NCBI GenBank assembly: GCA_018141785.1 | Contig: CP073341.1 | Location: 1,657,422-1,721,421, forward strand | Length of the DNA: 64,000 nucleotides | DNA from: Candidatus Paraprochloron terpiosi LD05 | GTDB taxonomy: Bacteria > Cyanobacteriota > Cyanobacteriia > Cyanobacteriales > Prochloraceae | Direction of reading: 5' to 3' | Shown here: piece by piece, positions 3,392-38,929 of the stretch | How the letters are laid out: every line of letters begins with the position of its first letter | Position numbering within the stretch: the first letter of the stretch is position 1 | The notes under the pieces: model-generated | The model's database searches: none | What the model was told of the DNA's origin: nothing | What the model saw: only the letters and a program-made list of their open reading frames with translations | Translations under genes and position numbers: made by a program

Positions 3392-4297
3392 TTGCAATTA
3401 TCGATCTGTATTTTTGCCGATTCTGAACAGCTCACTCAGTCCTTGACTCAAGTACTGAAGGTTGGACGCTATCGCTTGAATGCACTCCATACCCACAAGG
3501 AGTTCGAGAATTTTGTCACCCAGCACAAGGAACAAATCGATTGCTTAGTCTTTGTTAATAACCCTGCTTCGGAACCTCTCCTCAAACAGCTATATGAACA
3601 AGGTACCCTGCTACCAGCCATCATCATTGATGAGGATAATACCATAACACTTCCCACAGACCATAGTACAGAAGGAGAAAATCAAACCTATCTTTACCAC
3701 AGTGGGGAAATTCGACTGGCGGTCAATCAAATCCCAGACCCTGCCTCTTTTATCGACCAAGCGATCGCTCAGTTTCTCCACCTCACTCCCAGTTGTGCTC
3801 TCTCGGAACGTCCCCCTAAGATAGAATTAGTTCCCAACGAAAATACCGAGAACTTTCTCCTACTCCAACAGCGTCGGTTGTCCCAAAAGCTCAAGGAAAG
3901 ACTGGGATACTTAGGATTATATTATAAAAGAAATCCCAAGTTTTTTTATCGGAATCTATCCCCAAAAGAAAAAACAGAACTTACCGAGCAATTAAGGGAA
4001 GAATATCGTCAAATTCTTCTCAATTACTTTGCTAAAGAAATTAATATAAATACAGCCATCGACCAATATGTTAATCGTGCTTTCTTTGCTGATGTTTCTG
4101 TTGAGCAAGTTTTGGAAATCCATATGGAATTAATAGATGAATTCTCGCAACAGCTTAAATTGGAAGGAAGAAGCGATGAAATTATCCTTGACTACCGTCT
4201 AACTTTGATTGATATGATTGCTCACTTGTGCGAAATGTATCGTCGTTCTATTCCCAGGGAAGATATTCCTTTGTCAAGCCACTTCGAAGTAGACTAA
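3392..4297 (+). CDS. kaiA: Circadian clock protein KaiA (full-length, 301 aa)
   Basis: It lies immediately upstream of kaiB and kaiC. It has an N-terminal pseudo-receiver-like region and a C-terminal helical domain (LIDMIAHLCEMYRRS). The start codon is TTG. Confidence 0.9.
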   Translation: MQLSICIFADSEQLTQSLTQVLKVGRYRLNALHTHKEFENFVTQHKEQIDCLVFVNNPASEPLLKQLYEQGTLLPAIIIDEDNTITLPTDHSTEGENQTYLYHSGEIRLAVNQIPDPASFIDQAIAQFLHLTPSCALSERPPKIELVPNENTENFLLLQQRRLSQKLKERLGYLGLYYKRNPKFFYRNLSPKEKTELTEQLREEYRQILLNYFAKEININTAIDQYVNRAFFADVSVEQVLEIHMELIDEFSQQLKLEGRSDEIILDYRLTLIDMIAHLCEMYRRSIPREDIPLSSHFEVD

Positions 4298-4359
4298 AAT
4301 AAATTCTTCTCTCTCAGTTTGCCAACTAATTATTTAACTAGATATTAAGATTTAGGACT

Positions 4360-4668
4360 ATGTTCAAAAAAGCTTATATTTTAAAGCTTTATGTTGCCGG
4401 GAATACTTCCAACTCTGTTCGTGCTCTAAAAACCCTGAAAAATATCCTGGAAGAAGATTTTCAAGGTGTCTACGCACTCAAAGTGATTGATGTGCTCAAA
4501 AATCCCCAACTAGCTGAGGAAGATAAAATCTTAGCCACCCCAACTCTATCGAAAGTTTTGCCTCCTCCAGTGCGCAAGATTATCGGCGATCTTTCCGATC
4601 GGGAAAAAGTATTAATTGGCTTAGATCTTCTGTACGAGGAAATCAGAGACAGAGACTCAGACCTGTAA
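4360..4668 (+). CDS. kaiB: Circadian clock protein KaiB
   Basis: 102 aa. Starts [26 protein letters not shown] and contains [23 protein letters not shown], typical of KaiB. Confidence 0.95.
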
Positions 4669-4729
4669 GTGGAGATTTTTTGACCTCTGGGATATAAACT
4701 ATAAATATGGGTAACTTCCGAGAACTAAC

Positions 4730-6289
4730 ATGAATCAATTGAATCTCAATGCACAAAACAAAGACAAATTAATTCTGAAAGGAGTCCAGAAAATACTGAC
4801 AACAATTGAAGGATTTGATGAAATCACTCATGGTGGTCTCCCTATGGGGAGAACAACTCTGGTAAGCGGCACCTCCGGTACAGGCAAAACCTTGCTAGCG
4901 ATTCAGTTTCTCTATCATGGCATCAAATATTTCGATTATCCCGGCTTATTTGTTACTTTTGAAGAATCGCCTACGGATATTATCCAAAATGCCTATAGTT
5001 TTGGCTGGAATTTGGCAGACTTAATTGATAAGGGTAAATTATTCATTCTCGACGCCTCTCCGGATCCAGAAGGACAGGAAGTGGTGGGGAATTTTGACCT
5101 TTCTGCTTTAATCGAACGGATTCAGTATGCCATTAGCAAATATCAAGCCAAATTAGTTTCCATTGACTCGGTTACGGCGGTATTTCAACAGTACGATGGT
5201 GCTTCAGTCGTTAGACGGGAAATCTTTCGTCTCGTTGCTCGTCTCAAACAACTGAAAGTCACCTCAATTATGACTACAGAAAGGGTAGAGGAATACGGTC
5301 CTGTTGCTCGGTTTGGGGTGGAGGAATTTGTTTCCGACAATGTGGTGATTGTGCGCAACGTCTTGGAAGGGGAACGGCGTCGTCGCACGGTGGAAATTCT
5401 CAAGTTGCGGGGTACCACCCATATGAAAGGGGAGTATCCCTTTACCATTACTAATGATGGCATTAATATTTTCCCATTGGGTGCTATGCGACTGACTCAG
5501 CGTTCCTCCAATGTGAGGATTTCTTCTGGTATCAAAACCTTGGACTCCATGTGTGGCGGGGGTTTCTTCAAAGATTCCATTATTTTGGCAACTGGTGCTA
5601 CGGGAACCGGAAAAACCCTGTTGGTGAGTAAGTTTTTAGAAGAAGGTTGTCGGCGAGGGGAAAGGGCAATTCTTTTTGCTTACGAAGAATCTAGACCCCA
5701 ATTATCCCGCAATGCTTCATCTTGGGGCATTGATTTTGAGGAAATGGAGCAAAAAGGCTTGCTGAAACTGCTTTGTTGCTATCCAGAATCAGCGGGTTTG
5801 GAAGACCATTTGCAAATGATTAAATCGGAGATTTCGGAATTCAAACCCTCTCGCATCGCCATTGATTCTCTCTCAGCTTTGGCTCGGGGGGTTACTAACA
5901 ATGCTTTCCGCCAGTTTGTCATTGGGGTGACTGGTTATGCAAAACAAGAAGAAATTACCGGTTTCTTTACCAACACTACGGATCAGTTTATGGGTGCTCA
6001 TTCCATTACAGAGTCCCATATTTCCACCATTACGGACACCATTATCATGCTCCAATATGTGGAAATTAGGGGAGAAATGTCCCGGGCAATTAATGTATTT
6101 AAAATGCGTGGTTCTTGGCATGATACGGGCATTCGGGAGTACAGTATTAGTGAGGAAGGTCCGGAAATCAAGAATTCCTTCAGTAACTACGAACGGATTA
6201 TTAGCGGTTCTCCCAGTCGCATTTCTGTGGACGAAAAGTCTGAACTTTCACGGATTGTTCGGGGTGTTAGGGACAGAACAAAGGACTAA
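4730..6289 (+). CDS. kaiC: Circadian clock ATPase/autokinase KaiC
   Basis: 519 aa with duplicated RecA-like halves. Two Walker A motifs (GTSGTGKT and GATGTGKT). The phosphosite region ITESHISTITDTII is present. Confidence 0.97.
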   Translation: MNQLNLNAQNKDKLILKGVQKILTTIEGFDEITHGGLPMGRTTLVSGTSGTGKTLLAIQFLYHGIKYFDYPGLFVTFEESPTDIIQNAYSFGWNLADLIDKGKLFILDASPDPEGQEVVGNFDLSALIERIQYAISKYQAKLVSIDSVTAVFQQYDGASVVRREIFRLVARLKQLKVTSIMTTERVEEYGPVARFGVEEFVSDNVVIVRNVLEGERRRRTVEILKLRGTTHMKGEYPFTITNDGINIFPLGAMRLTQRSSNVRISSGIKTLDSMCGGGFFKDSIILATGATGTGKTLLVSKFLEEGCRRGERAILFAYEESRPQLSRNASSWGIDFEEMEQKGLLKLLCCYPESAGLEDHLQMIKSEISEFKPSRIAIDSLSALARGVTNNAFRQFVIGVTGYAKQEEITGFFTNTTDQFMGAHSITESHISTITDTIIMLQYVEIRGEMSRAINVFKMRGSWHDTGIREYSISEEGPEIKNSFSNYERIISGSPSRISVDEKSELSRIVRGVRDRTKD

Positions 6290-6414
6290 ACCAATATTGG
6301 TCAGGTTTGGGTATAATATATACTACTATAGGATATATAGTGCGGCGATCGCGATACATATCCGCTACTTTGTACAGTTCATGATTGTTAGTTTGTTTCA
6401 TTATAGGGGGGGTA

Positions 6415-7614
6415 TTATTTCCCTAGTTCTTTGATCCGCTTCAGGGCGCTCCTGTAATCTCGTCTATATCCTTGTTGCTTATAGAGTTTGGCAGCATTTT
6501 TTAAATCCTCCATAGCTTCTCGTTTTTTTTCTTGTTGTTTGTAAGCTAAACCCCTGTTAATGTAGGCGTGAGCTAAGTTAGGCTCCAAACGGATAGCTTC
6601 GTTGTAATCAGCCATCGCTCCCTTATAATCCTTCAACCCTCTCCGCCGTGCAAAACCTCTGTTATTGTAGGCAGCAGCTAAGTTAGGCTCCAAACGGATA
6701 GCTTCGGTGAAATCAGCGATCGCCCTCTTATAATCCTTCAACTCATTCCGTGCTAAACCCCTATTATTGTAGGTGGTAGCATCGTTAGGCTCCAAACGGA
6801 TAGCTTCGGTGAAATCAGCGATCGCTTCTTTATAATCTTCCAACTCATTCCGTGCAATACCCCTATTATAATAGGCCAGAGCTAAGTTAGGATCCAAATA
6901 GATAGCTTTCGTGTAATCGGTGATCGCCTTCTTATAATCCTTCAACTCATTCCGTGCTAAACCCCTATTATAGTAGGCGCAAGCTAAGTTAGGATCCAAA
7001 CGGATAGCTTTCGTGTGATCGGCGATCGCCCCTTTATAATCGTTCAAGGATTTGCGTGCAATACCCCTGTTATAGTAGGTGGCAGCTAACTTAGGATCCA
7101 AACGGATAGCTGACCTGTAATCGGCGATCGCCCCCTGATAATCTTTCAACCCATTCCGTGCAATGCCCCTGTTAATGTAGGCTACAGCATCGTTTGGCTC
7201 CAAACGAATTGCTTTGGTATAATCTTCTATCGCCCCCTTCCAGTCTCCTTTTCCCCTTTTCTCAAGACCCCGTTTCAACCAATCTTTTGCACTTAGAGAG
7301 GTATTCTTGGGAGAAGAAGTTTGTGTTGGAGTGTTAGGAATAGTAGAAGCTAGGTTTTGAGGAGCAGGAGAAGGAGGAGAGGAAACAGTTACAGTAGGAA
7401 GCAAGTCTAACCACGCTTTCACCGATTGGGGGCGATTTTCTGGATATGGTTCCATTCCAGCGATGATGGCTTTCTTTAACCTATCGCTGACATGGCGTTG
7501 GTGAATTAGAAGATGGATGTGGAATAGACAGATTCTAGAACGTTTCATTTTCACTACTACACATAAAACAAAGAAAAATATGTACACGAATGTATTATGT
7601 ATACCAAAAGGCAC
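6415..7614 (-). CDS. TPR-repeat protein carrying only the last subdomain of a Ser/Thr kinase at its N-terminus (5'-truncated STK-TPR gene)
   Basis: About 8 34-aa TPR units (AIxDYxxAIRLxPNxAxAYxNRGxAR). The N-terminal LKKAIIAGMEPYPENRPQSVKAWLDLL resembles the C-terminal end of Hanks-type kinase domains, but no catalytic core precedes it. Usable starts may be M23 (7548) or M54 (7455). Confidence 0.6.
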   Translation of the reverse strand: MPFGIHNTFVYIFFFVLCVVVKMKRSRICLFHIHLLIHQRHVSDRLKKAIIAGMEPYPENRPQSVKAWLDLLPTVTVSSPPSPAPQNLASTIPNTPTQTSSPKNTSLSAKDWLKRGLEKRGKGDWKGAIEDYTKAIRLEPNDAVAYINRGIARNGLKDYQGAIADYRSAIRLDPKLAATYYNRGIARKSLNDYKGAIADHTKAIRLDPNLACAYYNRGLARNELKDYKKAITDYTKAIYLDPNLALAYYNRGIARNELEDYKEAIADFTEAIRLEPNDATTYNNRGLARNELKDYKRAIADFTEAIRLEPNLAAAYNNRGFARRRGLKDYKGAMADYNEAIRLEPNLAHAYINRGLAYKQQEKKREAMEDLKNAAKLYKQQGYRRDYRSALKRIKELGK

Positions 7615-28972: not shown

Positions 28973-29161
28973 TCAAAATTTCGGATATAATCCTGCCTGC
29001 TTACAAATTTGATTTGCTGTAATTCTATCAAATGTTTTATGTCGTTTGACGGGTATCTTTTTGCTGTCATTTGTGTAGATTGAGTGATTACCACCTTCTC
29101 TTAAAAGATAAAAGCCATTTTCTTTCAAATAGGACAATAGTTCACGGCGTTTGACCGACAT
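28973..29161 (-). CDS. hicA: HicA-family mRNA interferase toxin
   Basis: MSVKRRELLSYLKENGFYLLREGGNHSIYTN...IPVKRH..., the YcfA/HicA signature. Start taken at the internal Met. Confidence 0.8.
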   Translation of the reverse strand: MSVKRRELLSYLKENGFYLLREGGNHSIYTNDSKKIPVKRHKTFDRITANQICKQAGLYPKF

Positions 29162-29381
29162 AATTAACCTCAACGGGCACTTGTTCTATCAGACTATTAC
29201 CTAAGGGGATCTCTTGGTTTTGCTGACAGTAGGCTAATACCATTTCCTGGGCTGCATCTCGCAACATTCGACGGCATTCTTCCAGGTCTTTTCCTTCTGT
29301 AACTACTTCTGGCCACTCCACTAGTTGCCCCATATAACCAGCATCAATTTTAGTGTATTTGGCGGTGTAAGTTTGAATCAT
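29142..29381 (-). CDS. hicB: HicB-family antitoxin (UPF0150-type, no DNA-binding extension)
   Basis: YTAKYTKIDAGYMGQLVEWPEVVTEGKDLEECRRMLRDAAQEMVLAY. It lies upstream of hicA and overlaps it by 20 nt. Confidence 0.75.
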   Translation of the reverse strand: MIQTYTAKYTKIDAGYMGQLVEWPEVVTEGKDLEECRRMLRDAAQEMVLAYCQQNQEIPLGNSLIEQVPVEVNYVGQTP

Positions 29382-29519: not shown

Positions 29520-30608
29520 ATGAACAAGAACGTTATTTTTCTCATTTTACTCCTTTTTATCCCAGTTTCCATCATCGGTAACTTTCTGGAGTGGGGATCA
29601 GTGGTAGTATTCATTACTGCTGGTTTAGGTATTGTACCCCTAGCTGCCTTTATGGGAGAAGCCACGGAAGAAATCGCTGTGGTAGTGGGACCAAATTTAG
29701 GGGGGCTGTTAAATGCTACCTTTGGTAATGCTACGGAACTGATTTTGGCTTTTTTCGCTCTGAAAGCAGGGCTAATTGAGGTAGTTAAAGCTACTCTTAC
29801 AGGCTCGATTATCAGTAATATCCTGTTGGTAATGGGTTTTGCTATGGTTTTGGGGGGACTCCGTTATAAGGAGCAAGAATTTCAGACAGCAGTTGCTCAG
29901 ACTAACTCTTCCCTCATGAATTTAGCAGTAATTGCCTTGTTAGTACCCACCGCAGTGGAATATACTTCTACTGGTATTGGGGAAGAAACTATCCAAACAC
30001 TTTCCGTTGCTGTTGCGGTTGTGCTTATTTTAGTCTATGGATTGAGTCTTTTGTTCTCTATGAAAACCCACTCCTATCTCTATGAGGTGGGGGTAGCTGA
30101 CTTAGAACAGGAAGAGGAACAGGATACAGAACCTCCTAAGATTTGGTTTTGGGTTATAGTGCTCTTAGCTGTCACTATCGGGGTAGCAGTGGAATCGGAA
30201 TTGTTGGTAGACTCTTTAGAAGAAGCTACTTCTAGTTTGGGACTAACTGCATTGTTTACTGGGGTGATTTTGCTACCTATTATCGGCAATGCTGCTGAAC
30301 ATGCTACTGCTGTGACGGTAGCCATGAAGGATAAGATGGATCTGTCTGTTTCTGTAGCTATTGGTTCTAGTTTACAAATTGCCTTATTTGTTGCTCCTGT
30401 GTTAGTTATTACTGGGTGGGCGATGGGTCAACCTATGGATCTGAATTTCAACCCCTTTGAGTTAGTTGCAGTTGCAGTAGCAGTGTTAATTATCAATTCT
30501 ATCAGTGCGGACGGGAAATCTAACTGGTTGGAAGGAGGTTTGCTGTTAGCTACTTACACTGTCTTGGGTTTAGCGTTTTATTTCCATCCTGTGGTGGTAG
30601 GGTTATAG
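29520..30608 (+). CDS. Ca2+/H+ antiporter (CaCA/CAX family)
   Basis: About 11 TM segments. Duplicated alpha-repeat motifs GNATELI and GNAAEHATAV. Confidence 0.9.
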   Translation: MNKNVIFLILLLFIPVSIIGNFLEWGSVVVFITAGLGIVPLAAFMGEATEEIAVVVGPNLGGLLNATFGNATELILAFFALKAGLIEVVKATLTGSIISNILLVMGFAMVLGGLRYKEQEFQTAVAQTNSSLMNLAVIALLVPTAVEYTSTGIGEETIQTLSVAVAVVLILVYGLSLLFSMKTHSYLYEVGVADLEQEEEQDTEPPKIWFWVIVLLAVTIGVAVESELLVDSLEEATSSLGLTALFTGVILLPIIGNAAEHATAVTVAMKDKMDLSVSVAIGSSLQIALFVAPVLVITGWAMGQPMDLNFNPFELVAVAVAVLIINSISADGKSNWLEGGLLLATYTVLGLAFYFHPVVVGL

Positions 30609-30743
30609 GAATAAATTCTAGGGGGACAAATTTTCTAGTTGAGAATTTCATAATTTTCTCATTCCCCCTATAGTACATCAAAATACCATTCCCATAACCC
30701 TTTGCGCCTTTGCGTCTTGGCGCGAAACTCAAATATCGGTTCT

Positions 30744-31613
30744 TTAGGTATTTGTCTCCAACCACCGAATTAAATCTGCCACTTGGTCAAAATCCAACAC
30801 CGCTTCACCTAATGTTTCTAACCGCTCCAAGGGTAAGATTTCAACTTGAGACTGTTGGGCTGGGGAAAGGGAGCCAACACGATGGCGCAGCAGCCTTATA
30901 ATTAACCTCCGTTCTCCTTCCCAACGTCCTTCAACTCGTCCCTCTTGGAGTCCTTCAATTCGTCCTTCTTGTAAGCCTTCTTGTAGTCCTTCCTGATAAA
31001 CCCTGGTGTGCTTGACGCTTTCTGCTAATCCCAACATTGCTGCAATCTCCTTACGACTTAATTGGGGAAACTTGTATACCATTGTAGTCTCAATCAACTC
31101 CAAGATTTTTTCCTTGGGAATTTTTGTATCCTCGGTTTGGTTGACTTGCGCCCATAATGTTCTTGCGAGTTTAGGTACTTGCTTGTCAGGTTTGACAATT
31201 AATTCCATCAGCCCTAGGGTAGGGGAAAACTCACCTGTTGAAGACAGCAGTTCATTGAGATAAAAACGTTGAACCTGTTCAGAGTTTCGGGGAGTCAGGT
31301 TCCAAGGAGCGCCGAGGAAAAATAACAACTGCCTGCTAATCCGAGATATTGGGATGAAAGAGCTAAAAACATAAATAGTTCCCCAAACAAGCGATGATAG
31401 AGTAATTCATCTTTTTGGAATTGAACTTCTACAAAAAAACCGGTTCATCCACTGCGTCGGGAGGGGGTAGAAATACTCCATCAATCCTGAAAGCTGTTTG
31501 TTTGACTTCTATGGAACGAAAATGATACCTTGCTCGGTAGGGTTGTCCAATGAGTTCAAAGAAAATCTCCGGCACACTCTGGAAAATACGGTAGAAGAGG
31601 GAGGGCGACTCGT
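30744..31613 (-). pseudogene. Rpn/YhgA-like (DUF2887 + DUF4351-type) putative nuclease/transposase, frameshifted copy 1
   Basis: The C-terminal part is intact (EIAAMLGLAESVKHTRVYQEGLQEG...LSPAQQSQVEILPLERLETLGEAVLDF). The N-terminal homology (SLFYRIFQSVPEIFFELIGQPYRARYHFRSIEVKQTAFRIDGVFLPPPDAVDEP) is in another frame and is broken at a T7 run (TAG). Copy 1 also carries a ~24-nt deletion relative to copy 2. Confidence 0.65.
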
Positions 31614-32798
31614 TCTGAGCGAAAAAGTCGCGGCTTAATAGGCCAAAACTATAATCTCAGGCTAGGTGCACTACACCTTGACAACTAAATCAGGAATGTT
31701 GGTGAGGAGCTGGTCAGCAATCAGTCTTCCAAGTCCAACCGCTTAAGGGATAAGCGAATCTCTATCTGCCCACACGCGACTGTGAATTCAAGCAGGCTCG
31801 CCGGGTTAGCCTCCGGGGCGTGAAGCTGGGGACAGGGCGCAATCAGAGCCGAAAGGCGCACTGGCGCTAATGGGGAGAATCCATGGTTAACAGGTATCCT
31901 AGAAATAGGTACGCACTCACCGGAAAAAGCGTCTAATATACCGAAGCACAACCTCGTTGGGCTTTCGTATCGGCATACAAATCCCGCTCTGTCTTTTCCT
32001 CGACAAGAGCATCTCTGGGGGTCGATAGGCGAATTGGTGAGACCTAAAGGTTCAGTGCGGCTCGAAAGTCGCAGTAGTTAGTGGGTAAAACCCCATGGGA
32101 AGTGTCTTCCCCGGTTCCCGCCCGAAGAAGCTTTGGCAGTAATGCCGGAGTTTCACAGCTAGAGGGTTAAATGGCCAAGCTACTATCAGTCCGATGATGG
32201 TAGCGGCCTAGGGAAAGTCTGATATGGTGAGCATAAAGCAAAGCTTGCAACCTCGTCATAGGTAATGAGTGAAAGCGGTACTGTTACACTCTAACCAAAA
32301 CGGTATGCGGCATATGTGAAAGATGGACTGGAATCGTCATCGCGTAGACACCACGCCGCCGGGGGATGGAGCAGCCCGCCGTCAGACGTATCTAACTATT
32401 GTGGAACGAGTTAACCTCCACAGGGTCTGAGAAATCAGTAGGGAAGCTGTAAAGCGAACCAACTCCCTGGGGAGAAAGGACTCTCCTAAAAAGCGAACGC
32501 TGCCAGGACGAAAGTTCAGGGGAATCAATAACCCGGCAGATAGGCAAATGTCTACTCGAAAGGGGAGCTGACGTAGGAGAGGGTGAAACGTAACGGTAAA
32601 ATCCCTTATCACTTGCGATTTTGCCTTTCCATTAGCTGGAACTTGAAACTCAAAGCTCCTCAGAAGTTAGAGGCGTCGGGCAAACGTCAATGGCGAGGAG
32701 GTTGGAATTTAAGGACTCAAAGCCCAATCTGAATGAGACCTGAAAGCCGACACAAGTAATGAGGAGTAAACGCGCCAGCGAGTAGGATGATACACCAG

Positions 32799-32832
32799 GA
32801 GCCGGGTGCTTAGAAACTTGCACGCCCGGTAC
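32799..32832 (+). ncRNA. Degenerate group II intron domain V-like hairpin
   Basis: GAGCCGGGUGCUUAGAAACUUGCACGCCCGGUAC has the same 34-nt architecture as 33317-33350 (AGC triad, AC bulge, GAAA loop). It differs by an A-A mismatch in the lower helix and a weak upper helix. Confidence 0.5.
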
Positions 32833-33316
32833 TGTGAGGGGGAAAACCTGTAAGGTCTCACCTATCTCGACAAACAATTTCTGATTTTGGAACGAGGAAA
32901 AACGGATGGTTCTTTCTCCTAGGGGTGGTACCCGGAGTGGGAAGGCAGGCATACTTCTATCGAGGCCATTCGGATAGGACGCGGGAACGAAAGCCACGAT
33001 GCTAAACAATTGCCCGCAATGTGTTGGAGCTAATTACCAACCAGTTAGGAGACGCCCACAGGCTGAAAATATGCCACATATACGCCATATAGCAGAAGGG
33101 ATAACTCTAGTTCCGAATTTTAGGTCGGGGTAAGATGACGCCGAGTAGGAATATAATCCGAATTTTAGGCTCCCGTTAAATCCGAGTAGGAACCAGCAAA
33201 ACTGAGACTGGACAGTATTTAAGGCGAAGATTGCCACAATCTGACTTCCATAACTAGATAGAGGCAATCAATGGATTTTCTATCTTTTGCGGTAGGTTTC
33301 AATCCACAGGTCATAG

Positions 33317-33350
33317 GAGCCGTGTGAGGCGAAAGTTTCACGCACGGTTC
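33317..33350 (+). ncRNA. Canonical group II intron domain V
   Basis: GAGCCGUGUGAGGC-GAAA-GUUUCACGCACGGUUC forms a 9-bp lower helix with the AGC catalytic triad, a 2-nt AC bulge, a 5-bp upper helix and a GAAA tetraloop. Confidence 0.85.
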
Positions 33351-33461
33351 TGAAAGGGAGCTGGGGTGGGTGACCACTCCTTCGACCCGAACATCTACTT
33401 TTCATGAATCATTACTCTGTCAGCTAAATAATTTCAGTTCAATAAAATTGTGATTAACTAT

Positions 33462-33596
33462 TTAACTGAACCGATGATAACCTAGTACTTCTACATAACT
33501 CAAGGCTGAGACGGCTGGCGTACATTGGGCTATGAAACGTCTCAGCTCAGAATTTTCTGGTCTAGCTGCATAAATGATAATATTGCTATCCAGGAG
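33462..33596 (-). pseudogene. VapC (PIN-domain) toxin remnant, N-terminal ~45 aa only
   Basis: MLLDSNIIIYAARPENSELRRFIAQCTPAVSALSYVEVLGYH then stop. PIN proteins are ~130 aa. Upstream (33650-33790) an antitoxin-like frame (VDYAVLKGNHLEWTDDVPLSDRP) carries a TAA at codon 3. Confidence 0.5.
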
Positions 33597-33905
33597 CATT
33601 CTTAGTTTCTCTGGGGAAGGGAACGGTCTTGGCGCAACTTTCGCTGCCATGTCATGGGATCTACGTCAGAGTAGGCTTTACTTTGAGTTAATTGCTCAAG
33701 AGCCGAACCGCCCTAGGGCGATCGCTGAGAGGAACATCATCAGTCCACTCTAGGTGGTTTCCCTTCAATACAGCGTAGTCAACATTTTCTTAAATCATTG
33801 TATTTCCCTTCTTATTATATAACAAACTTATTCCTTTGCGCCTTTGCGTCTTTGCGCGAGACATAGAATTTTTGGTTTCACGCTCCGGCGCTCCGGCGCG
33901 GAGAG

Positions 33906-34529
33906 TTAGAGGAGATAAACGAGAACGAAGAGAATAACCCAGACTACGTCCACAAAGTGCCAGTAAAGTTCGGCTGCTTCTACTCCAAAATGACTGTTTT
34001 CGGAATAGTGTTCTGGTTGGCGGGATCGCCACAAAACGGCTAAAATGAGCAACAGCCCTAGGGTAACATGTAAACCGTGAAATCCAGTGAGAACGTAGAA
34101 GCAACTGGTAAAGACATTCAGGGTTAAACCAAATTCGGCGTGGCTATATTCATATAGCTGTCCCAGGAGAAAAATTGCTCCCATAGCCGCAGTAATAGCA
34201 AACCAAAGCTGCAACCCAGGAACATCATTTTTCTGAATGGCACTTTGACCTTTGTGCATGACGAAGCTGCTCGAAATCAGGATAATACTATTGATTCCCG
34301 GTATCAAAAGTTCCAACTCGGGGGTTCCTTCTGGAGGCCAAACTGGCATCATGCTCCGATAGATTAAGAAGGCACCAAAGAGACCGAGGAAAATCATGCT
34401 TTCGGCCACGAGAAAGACGATGACACCTAACATGCGATGGTCAGGATGTTCCCCGTGAGTACCTTCATTTTTCAGCTCTTTGTGATAGTTGAGGGCTAGT
34501 TTTGGATCTTCTACAGTTGAACTTTGCAT
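33906..34529 (-). CDS. ctaE: Cytochrome c oxidase subunit III
   Basis: 207 aa with 5 TM segments. FYVLTGFHGLHVTLG and WHFVDVVWVILF. Confidence 0.93.
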   Translation of the reverse strand: MQSSTVEDPKLALNYHKELKNEGTHGEHPDHRMLGVIVFLVAESMIFLGLFGAFLIYRSMMPVWPPEGTPELELLIPGINSIILISSSFVMHKGQSAIQKNDVPGLQLWFAITAAMGAIFLLGQLYEYSHAEFGLTLNVFTSCFYVLTGFHGLHVTLGLLLILAVLWRSRQPEHYSENSHFGVEAAELYWHFVDVVWVILFVLVYLL

Positions 34530-37795: not shown

Positions 37796-38690
37796 TTAGG
37801 TATTTGTCTCCAACCACCGCATTAAATCTGCCACCTGGTCAAAATCCAACAGCGCTTCACCTAATGCTTCTAACCGCTCCAAGGGTAAGGCTTCAACTTG
37901 AGACTGTTGGGCTGGGGAAAGGGAGCCAACACGATGGCGCAGCAGCCTTATAATTAACCTCTGCTCTCCTTCCCAACGCCCCTCAACTCGTCCCTCTTGA
38001 AGTCCTTCAATTCGTCCCTCTTGAAGTCCTTCTTGTAGACCTTCCTGATAGACTCTGGTGTGCTTCACACTTTCTGCTAATCCTAACATTGCTGCAATCT
38101 CCTTACGACTTAATTGGGGAAATTTATAAACCATTGTAGTCTCAATCAACTCCAAGATTTTTTCCTTGGCAATTTTTGTATCCTCGGTTTGGTTGACTTG
38201 TTGCCATAATGTTCTTGCTAGTTTAGGTACTTGCTTCTCTGGTTTGACAATTAATTCCATCAGCCCTATGGTAGGGGAAAACTTACCTGTCTCAGACAGC
38301 AGTTCATTGAGATAAAAACGTTGAACCTGCTCACTCGACAATAATGCTTCATAGAGTTTTCTCTTGTCAGGTGACCGGGTGCGTCGAGGAAAGATAACAA
38401 CTGCCTGCCAATCTGAAATATGGGGATGAAAGAGCCAAAAACATGAATAGCTCCCCAAACAAGCGATGATAGAGTAATTCATCTTTTTGGAATTGGACTT
38501 CTACAAAAAAAACCGGTTCATCCACTGCGTCGGGAGGGGGTAGAAATACTCCATCAATCCTGAAAGCTGTTTGTTTGACTTCTATAGAGCGAAAATGATA
38601 CCCTGCTTGGTACGGTTGTCCAATGAGTTCAAAGAAAATTTCCGGTCCACTCTGGAAAATGCGGTAAAATAGGGAATCTGTTTTCAGAAT
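37796..38690 (-). pseudogene. Rpn/YhgA-like (DUF2887 + DUF4351-type) gene, copy 2, at least one frameshift and no ATG
   Basis: N-terminal frame: TDSLFYRIFQSGPEIFFELIGQPYQAGYHFRSIEVKQTAFRIDGVFLPPPDAVDEPVFFVEVQFQKDELLYHRLFGELFMFL. C-terminal frame: SDWQAVVIFPRR...DUF4351-like tail. The frame switch is near 38425-38440. Confidence 0.65.
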
Positions 38691-38929
38691 TTAATCGACT
38701 TACCGCCATTAATAGTATAACCCAAAAGATATTGAATTAGCGAAGTATTACCAATGACATTAAGTACGCAATTACCCAAACTAATTGATTGGATCCCCAG
38801 GGGAGGGGATCAAGCGATACCAGGGAGCTGCCACATCCTAATCTAAATCTGAAGAATAGCTAAAGTAATCCAGGAATTCCCATATAGAGTAATTATGCTC
38901 TAAGATAGCTTAACCCTTTCCTTTGTTTC

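Follow-up and report, generated by a model that had tools for sequence, protein, structure and literature searches.

Chloroplast twintrons of Euglena, described by Copertino and Hallick, consist of small introns without an open reading frame (ORF) nested in other ORF-less introns, in various domains, and are removed by sequential splicing; these organellar introns are highly degenerate and lie within expressed genes. A stretch of 64,000 nt from Candidatus Paraprochloron terpiosi LD05 (contig CP073341.1, positions 1,657,422 to 1,721,421; hereafter the window, in whose numbering coordinates are given) contains an interval on its plus strand, 31603–33392, which is best read as a group II twintron; the two ORF-less ribozymes that make it up are unrelated to each other and are probably both of the chloroplast-like/IIB type. 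We put the probability of this reading at nearly nine in ten. Unlike the Euglena introns, both introns of the window have full-size domains D1–D6.

In Thermosynechococcus elongatus, ORF-less introns are mobilised in trans and twintrons occur, including an ORF-less intron within the ORF-less intron TeI3h (PMC2882425). Like these TeI3/TeI4 elements (Mohr, Ghanem & Lambowitz 2010, PMC2882425), the window introns are cyanobacterial, probably IIB-type, compact ORF-less derivatives with good pairing between exon-binding sites (EBS) and intron-binding sites (IBS), and in both cases introns insert into introns. The T. elongatus inner intron is located in D4, where it separates the first ATG of the ORF for the intron-encoded protein (IEP) from the second, whereas that of the window is located in D1; the T. 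elongatus partners share one ancestral intron and keep ORF remnants, whereas the window introns share only D5, and no remnant was detected in them. Insertion into the D1 of the host intron is known from the Tery_4732 twintron of Trichodesmium erythraeum (Pfreundt & Hess 2015, PMC4649490), which is also cyanobacterial and also has an atypical inner domain V, and for which sequential splicing, proposed here, has been demonstrated; both Trichodesmium introns carry IEP ORFs and lie in sense orientation in a conserved protein-coding gene, whereas both window introns are ORF-less and lie antisense in a pseudogene. The activity of the T. elongatus introns is experimental (PMC2882425) and the splicing of the Trichodesmium twintron was shown by reverse-transcription PCR and Northern blot, whereas the window twintron is known from sequence alone. 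Repeated insertion of related introns into one another is described for Methanosarcina (Dai & Zimmerly 2003, in the form in which it is cited in PMC4649490 and PMC2882425) and is seen also in relatives of the window introns (loci L020, Crinalium L002 and L108); in those accounts the Methanosarcina target is an IEP coding sequence, whereas in the window it is ribozyme RNA in D1.

The D5–D6 model of Rfam (Intron_gpII, RF00029, gathering score 40) has two above-threshold matches in the whole window, both on the plus strand: 33315–33392 (59.4 bits, E 4e-9) and 32797–32871 (46.1 bits, E 7e-6). An earlier note, made from the letters of this DNA, had placed two D5–D6 modules here, with the outer D5 at 33317–33350, and both positions hold. 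The second-best Rfam matches of both D5s are plastid ndhA/ndhB IIB D5 families, below threshold, and a permissive scan of 30500–34500 added only sub-threshold plastid D5 families. The folding energies of both introns are low relative to expectation (minimum free energy z-scores: inner intron −2.8, outer intron −2.7).

The nested arrangement is indicated by homologs of two kinds. Relatives were found with a degenerate D5 pattern in one genome per species (at least 101 stretches; more relatives probably exist), and three further ORF-less relatives (L106–L108) came from metagenomes scanned for a motif conserved in the outer D1; the conserved D1 motifs are GGCGAAKTGGTGANACCTAAAG and GCTGGAACTTGAAACTC. 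When its two segments are joined in silico, the outer intron matches, over positions 1–973 and with 73.6% identity (BLAST), an uninterrupted 989-nt intron in a metagenome-assembled genome (MAG) of Prochloron sp. (L037), which starts with GGGCGACUCGUU, ends with CCCCGAAC and has the same GGGCG and CGAAC ends as the window copy. L037 is contiguous over the 32054/32872 junction, reading GATTCAAAACAATTTCTGA (in longer context ...CCTAAAGATTCAAAACAATTTCTGA...), where the window has GGTTCA, 817 nt of inner intron and then AAACAATTTCTGA. The homologs of Crinalium, L106, L107 and L108 are likewise contiguous at this site, which makes five uninterrupted homologs with L037. The inner sequence, for its part, matches another locus of the same Prochloron genome (L025; BLAST), where the homolog spans GUGCGACCUG to UAUCACGAC directly downstream of murA and outside any outer-type intron. 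The similarity between the outer and the inner intron is confined to D5 (75% over 44 nt). A BLAST search of plasmids revealed D1 relatives of the outer intron in Crinalium and Nostoc and no inner homolog. The suggestion of the earlier note that an ORF-less intron starting with GUGCG at 32055 is nested in an ORF-less outer intron is thereby upheld, including the inner 5' end itself.

The outer ends were fixed by comparison with a paralogous copy of the gene that the element splits, which encodes a DUF2887/DUF4351 protein. Homology between this copy and the window runs to 31602 and then breaks off (...GAAGAGGGA/GGGCGACTCG); past the break, the paralog reads ATCTGTTTTCAGAAT (first codons K-T-D on the minus strand), and the window reads ATCTACTTTTCATGAAT right after 33392. 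The comparison thus delimits the element as 31603–33392, splitting the gene near codon 4 in antisense orientation. The same boundaries follow from a Crinalium plasmid locus with two Rfam D5 matches, where an ORF-less intron of about 950 nt is nested in the IEP ORF of another intron: its start GUGCGGCUCGUU aligns with the window's GGGCGACUCGUU at 31603, and deleting it (1807–2755, end CUAAC) restores a frame of 638 amino acids (aa), which a shift of the cut by one base breaks. For the inner intron, the ends GUGCG and GAC satisfy the 5' GUGYG and 3' AY consensus and are the same in L025 and in intron A of L020, a locus from a Microcoleaceae MAG; deletion of intron A (219–2602, GUGCG to CGAC) restores ..RYADDFVILHED.. 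/ ...LIRYADDFVILHEDIKV... of the IEP gene that it interrupts. Since the homologous ends in L020 and Crinalium restore the frames of their hosts, the window introns end at 32871 (..CUCGAC) and 33392 (..CGAAC). The earlier estimates need correction at three of the four ends: the outer 5' end had been sought at a GUGCA at 31666, which falls inside D1 sequence homologous to other introns, 63 nt downstream of the real start, and the two 3' ends, placed near 32865 and at 33396–33398, were each 4–6 nt off. An outer 3' end at 33393, derived from the frame across the DUF2887 start, was also considered and rejected, since this gene contains frameshifts in any case and 33392 is favoured by the alignment with the paralog as well as by the restored Crinalium frame. 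The coordinates are collected in Table 1.

Table 1. Coordinates of the twintron, its sequence and structure elements, and the split host gene in the window
Feature	Position	Strand	Evidence and remarks
Outer intron, total	31603–32054 + 32872–33392	+	973 nt, ORF-less
Outer intron, 5' segment: GGGCG end and most of D1 (EBS2, EBS1, tetraloop-receptor-like motif)	31603–32054	+	Paralog homology ends at 31602/31603; aligns from first base with L037, Crinalium, Nostoc, L039, L107; D1 covariation
Inner ORF-less group II intron, GUGCG to CUCGAC, own D1–D6	32055–32871	+	817 nt; absent from five outer-family homologs at exactly that site; standalone homolog L025; Rfam D5–D6 46.1 bits; D1 closing helices covary; end type (5' GUGCG, 3' CGAC) backed by L020 frame restoration
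Outer intron, 3' segment: 3' strands of two D1 closing helices, D2, D3, ORF-less D4, D5, D6, end CGAAC	32872–33392	+	L037 and Crinalium-type alignment continues; Rfam D5–D6 59.4 bits; Crinalium 3'-end frame restoration
Outer 5' exon target: IBS2 GUAGA 31591–31595, spacer A, IBS1 GAGGGA 31597–31602	31591–31602	+	IBS1 6/6 with EBS1, IBS2 4/5 with EBS2; same geometry in 6/6 family members
Outer D1 basal closing helix, 5' strand CUCGUUCU	31609–31616	+	Pairs with GGAACGAG 32889–32896 beyond inner intron; helix 1, 93.8% paired in the six-sequence alignment
Outer D1 second closing helix, 5' strand AAAUCAGGAAU	31687–31697	+	Pairs with AUUUCUGAUUU 32877–32887 across inner intron; helix 3
3' strands of both outer D1 closing helices: AUUUCUGAUUU 32877–32887, GGAACGAG 32889–32896	32877–32896	+	Pairing and covariation
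Outer EBS2 UAUAC	31937–31941	+	5-mer two bases after conserved AAAAGCGUCU
Outer EBS1 UUCCUC, loop of hairpin GCUCU...AGAGC	31996–32001	+	Cognate pairing; stem covaries (helix 15)
Inner target in outer D1: IBS2 ACCUA 32042–32046, IBS1 GGUUCA 32049–32054	32042–32054	+	Read from sequence; overlaps conserved CCUAAAG
Inner EBS2 UAGGU (putative), right after conserved CGUCA	32259–32263	+	5/5 with ACCUA; position and L025 analogy
Inner EBS1 candidate UGGAAU, loop of hairpin GAUGG...UCAUC	32329–32334	+	Putative; weaker than outer assignment
Inner D5: AGC triad, A2·A33 mismatch, tandem U·U upper helix, GAAA loop	32799–32832	+	Rfam alignment; sequence GAGCCGGGUGCUUAGAAACUUGCACGCCCGGUAC
Inner D6 and 3' end; predicted branch A32864, 8 nt from end	32836–32871	+	Rfam alignment
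Imperfect direct repeat in outer D4: UCCGAAUUUUAGG then CCGAGUAGGAA, each twice	~33111–33195	+	Two exact blocks, 13 and 11 nt
Outer D5, canonical: AGC triad, 2-nt bulge, GAAA loop	33317–33350	+	Rfam 59.4 bits; loop-closing C-G becomes G-C in L037
Outer D6 and 3' end; predicted branch A33385, 8 nt from end	33354–33392	+	Rfam alignment; CGA-NNNN-AAC geometry same in Crinalium-type relatives
DUF2887/DUF4351 (Rpn-like) pseudogene body, frameshifted	30744–31602	−	Pfam DUF2887 and DUF4351; N-terminal part readable in two frames; aligns with paralog
Remnant of the start of the same gene, ATGAAAAGTAGAT (M K S R), split off by twintron	33393–33405	−	Matches paralog ...AAAACAGAT/TCCCTA (K T D S L) empty site

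The 5' end of the outer intron, GGGCG, departs from the GUGYG consensus (U2 to G); L037 has the same end, and Crinalium, L039 and L107 have GUGCG. Circularly permuted group II RNAs with catalytic activity have GGGCG as their 5' boundary motif (PMC8637638), and the motif is among the listed organellar 5' splice-site variants (PMC6867995); the deviation does not exclude the group II membership of the outer intron. As the window and L037 copies occupy unrelated loci and have different cognate EBS, the variant probably predates at least one transposition and would be compatible with both splicing and reverse splicing.

The D1 of the outer intron was modelled with RNAalifold on six sequences, which also formed the family for the EBS comparison (the window, L037, Crinalium, Nostoc, the IEP-bearing L039 and L107). 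The model contains 74 pairs; pairing was counted independently. In this count, 95.7% of the cells are paired and 34 of the 74 pairs are changed on both sides, compared with 15.7 ± 2.6 in shuffles, none of 500 of which reached 34, and with 3–8 when the partners were slid by 1–3 columns. The second closing helix, which spans the insertion site, has two-sided changes at 9 of its 11 pairs. The D2, D3, D5 and D6 domains also align across the family, and the identity to L037 amounts to 83% in D1, 81% in D2–D3, 54% in D4 and 96% in D5–D6, as would be expected if the ribozyme core is under constraint and D4 is free to vary. At its 3' end the intron has AC, and the lower stem of its D6 contains two non-canonical pairs in the Rfam alignment. 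The motifs CAUGG (31882) and CCUAAAG of the outer D1 presumably resemble the 11-nt tetraloop receptor. A 45-nt internal tandem duplication had been noted in this intron; what stands is a direct repeat of imperfect copies, with the short exact blocks given in Table 1, in a D4 that is itself poorly conserved, and Tandem Repeats Finder reported nothing in the region.

In all six family members, the outer EBS1 pairs at 6/6 positions with the last six nucleotides of its own 5' exon, and non-cognate combinations give 1–5; EBS2 and IBS2 (exon positions −12 to −8) pair at 5/5 positions in the five relatives of the window copy. This cognate pairing fixes the 5' splice site and indicates that the family members reached different sites by base-pairing-guided insertion. 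The EBS1 loop UUUUCCUCG (31994–32002) is, in addition, exactly complementary to CGAGGAAAA (32893–32901, where D1 ends); no such complementarity is present in L037, and that of the window copy probably arose by chance.

The inner intron has 83 predicted D1 pairs, 28 of them compensatory across three sequences, both closing helices included; one closing helix is CUCG/CGAG in the window and CCUG/CAGG in L025 and L020 intron A. The EBS2 of L025, UAUCC, faces GGAUA at exon positions −12 to −8, and the loops homologous to the inner EBS1 pair at 5/6 positions with their own exons in both relatives (AUCCAC with GGGGAU in L025, UUACGA with UCGUUA in L020). Pairings between EBS and the flanks, which the nested arrangement had led the earlier note to look for, were thus found for the outer EBS1 (6/6), the outer EBS2 (4/5) and the putative inner EBS2 (5/5), and less cleanly for the inner EBS1 candidate. 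The unusual D5 of this intron, at 32799–32832 with an A·A mismatch and a non-Watson-Crick upper helix, is confirmed in both position and structure; its description as decayed is not, because the tandem U·U occurs also in L025 and in L020 intron A, the latter of which encodes an intact 504-aa RT-X-En protein, and the helix is therefore a trait of the lineage. The D6 helix of the inner intron had been drawn as GUGAG/CUCAC, which is not kept in L025; the helix GAGG/UCUC is kept instead, by a compensatory change to GUGG/UCAC. The 9-nt long-range complement reported in the earlier note exists and in fact extends to 10 nt (32036–32045 with 32853–32862), but inverted 9-mer pairs are at chance level in the region (8, compared with 4.9 ± 2.8 after shuffling), and the homolog does not conserve this one.

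Neither intron has an IEP ORF in D4, and both are ORF-less derivatives. As had been noticed before, the interval contains no plus-strand ORF (none of at least 50 aa was found), and tblastn searches with four related IEPs revealed no reverse transcriptase (RT), IEP or recognisable remnant in the interval or in the whole window. For the IEPs encoded by relatives of the two introns, the best match and closest solved protein is the T.el4h IEP (6ME0_C).

The locus may have arisen as follows. The 973-nt outer intron would have reverse-spliced into the bottom strand of the DUF2887/DUF4351 gene at about codon 4, guided by the EBS1–IBS1 and EBS2–IBS2 pairings (6/6 and 4/5), and the gene, unable to shed an antisense insertion, would have decayed afterwards; being antisense to the gene, the twintron cannot be lost from the gene's mRNA by splicing. 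The 817-nt inner intron, of a different lineage, would have reverse-spliced into the outer D1, 5 nt past the conserved CCUAAAG and 5' of the 3' strands of both D1-closing helices; either order of the two insertions is possible. Mobility, and probably splicing in vivo, would rely on an RT/maturase encoded elsewhere, of the type found in L039 and L020. Splicing would be sequential, with the inner intron leaving first, since only then can the outer D1 close.

Several observations weigh against the interpretation as a twintron of two group II ribozymes or against its integrity. No group-II-D1D4 model of Rfam matches 30500–34500 even at E ≤ 10, so that the Rfam check proposed in the earlier note succeeded for the two D5–D6 modules and failed for D1–D4; that note had regarded a D5 scoring alone, with no homologous introns, as the sign of a fossil fragment, and of this the missing D1–D4 match came true, while homologs and covariation supply the D1–D4 support. 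The match of the window 3' flank to the empty site of the paralog is short (about 14 of 17 nt). The inner family comprises three sequences only (the window copy, L020 intron A, and L025 after excision of its insertion). The outer EBS2–IBS2 pairing of the window copy has one mismatch (UAUAC with GUAGA), and the inner EBS1–IBS1 pairing (UGGAAU with GGUUCA) is imperfect, with 5/6 positions paired, two of them G·U, and one mismatch. In the inner D5, the A·A mismatch lies beside the catalytic triad, in L025 as in the window, and the A·C pair that closes its GAAA loop occurs in the window copy alone. A promoter scan found six promoter-like sites, compared with 4.3 ± 2.1 in shuffles, and only one of the six is on the plus strand; the promoter and terminator scan of the region was uninformative as a whole.

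These points bear mostly on whether the twintron is alive. The architecture may be right and the element nevertheless a dead fossil, stranded antisense in a pseudogene, unspliced and decaying neutrally, an alternative that falls only a little short of an even chance. Its position within a frameshifted gene and on the opposite strand, a promoter signal not above chance, the A·A and private A·C mismatches of the inner D5, the single mismatches in the outer EBS2–IBS2 and inner EBS1–IBS1 pairings and the absence of an IEP within 64 kb are all in keeping with it, as is the disruption of L025, a relative of the inner intron, by an IscB/HEARO element. Neutral decay accords poorly with the core helices of both D1s and both D5–D6 modules, which are all intact, with the difference between D5–D6 (96%) and D4 (54%) in identity to L037, and with the outer EBS1–IBS1 pairing, still 6/6; moreover, the A·A and U·U pairs are traits shared in the lineage and not private damage. 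The odds that both ribozymes are still competent to splice, if transcribed, are about even.

A more far-reaching proposal, which we consider unlikely, is that both protein-less ribozymes are active and are spliced in sequence by a single 'driver' IEP encoded elsewhere. The GGGCG (U2G) 5' site and the A·A/tandem-U·U D5 would then be natural functional variants, the composite would represent bacterial RNA-only nested introns with a common trans-acting splicing factor, and an antisense transcript across the DUF2887 start might also have a regulatory role.

Less probable still is co-option of the twintron, either for silencing of the DUF2887 gene by a stable, structured antisense RNA or as a composite that moves as a unit. 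The element does lie antisense across the start codon of the gene, ribozyme cores can in general be long-lived RNAs, and composite twintron mobility has been proposed for T. elongatus (PMC2882425); however, the host gene is already a frameshifted pseudogene, and the loci retrieved include no second composite copy.

The uninterrupted outer homologs and the standalone inner homolog exclude, for practical purposes, both two tandem or fragmentary copies, as which two same-orientation D5–D6 modules 518 nt apart could be taken (no GUGYG or D1 occurs between 32872 and 33316, 32872–33392 continues the alignment of 31603–32054 against the five uninterrupted homologs, and the D1 closing helices are formed by strands on either side of the inner element, 9 of 11 pairs being compensatory), and a single large intron with a duplicated or accessory D5-like domain, to which the 75% identity of the two D5s over 44 nt might point (GUGCG, EBS sites, a closed D1 that covaries and a D6 containing a branch A all belong to the inner element itself, which also has a standalone homolog elsewhere and shows no similarity to the outer intron outside D5).

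The gene split by the twintron belongs to a pair. Its DUF2887/DUF4351 product matches the Rpn family TIGR01784 only weakly, below threshold, and the second, paralogous copy is located at about 37796–38760 on the minus strand; the two copies are more than 90% identical, both frame-disrupted, in the same orientation, and flank the ctaCDE operon. The short Logan contigs (run SRR14292612) that carry genes of the window end near these repeats. The earlier view that no functional exon is interrupted holds in so far as the insertion is antisense and its host is now a pseudogene; it does not hold in so far as the twintron does split the DUF2887/DUF4351 gene near codon 4. At the other end, a 62-aa ORF (MAAKVAPRPF...LLDSNIIIYAARPE..., 33462–33650, minus strand) stops about 70 nt short of the 3' boundary of the twintron and may be a truncated gene; it may resemble the N-terminus of PIN/VapC toxins, and neither Pfam nor NCBIfam gave a match that would confirm this. 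Two overlapping small ORFs at 28973–29381 on the minus strand are HicA-toxin-like and UPF0150 (HicB-like), with Pfam labels taken from a matching Logan contig (L109). The genes of the window, which include psbA, ctaC/D/E and HicAB, are of cyanobacterial character; GC amounts to 44% in the window and to 50% in the interval.

Some of the related loci are composite themselves. The inner homolog of L025 (Prochloron sp. MAG OZ240666.1, about 4997–6636, minus strand) is split beside its EBS2 by a 1640-nt insertion, which contains a HEARO/omega RNA (RF02033, 118.9 bits) and a 445-aa ORF with an HNH domain, IscB-like in appearance; its D4 holds a separate palindromic insertion of about 120 nt. On metagenome contig JAABUX010046102.1 (L108), three D5–D6 matches lie on one strand within 3.8 kb, and an IEP-encoding intron sits in the D1 of an outer-type ORF-less intron. 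Intron A of L020 sits in the YADD codons of the RT of another intron, and the Crinalium ORF-less intron (L002, plasmid NC_019735) in the RT-0 region of its host IEP. The outer-family intron of Nostoc edaphicum plasmid pNe_3 (L003, about 3835–4700) starts with GUGUA and has cognate EBS1 and EBS2; its 8-kb locus contains no Rfam D5, a short 'RT N-terminal' ORF follows, and the intron looks like a 3'-truncated copy. A search of viral contigs with the degenerate D5 pattern gave no matches.

The window thus provides a cleanly delimited natural twintron, both partners of which are ORF-less and of different lineages and in which the inner intron splits the outer D1 rather than D4. It explains a 1.8-kb gap that appears 'empty' in the annotation, and the adjoining pseudogene as a gene split by the twintron. 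Current ideas are left unchanged, as cyanobacteria are already known for twintrons, for ORF-less introns and for mobilisation in trans; the twintron is distinctive in combining two ORF-less partners of different lineages, insertion into D1 and an antisense position in a gene, and is still a known kind of element. For the cyanobacterial introns more broadly, two small families of compact ribozymes (about 800–1000 nt), both missed by the Rfam D1–D4 models, are now defined, with boundaries, EBS sites and covariation-backed D1 models mapped, and within them the GGGCG 5' end and the tandem U·U in D5 have been retained by copies whose different sites clearly show that they moved.

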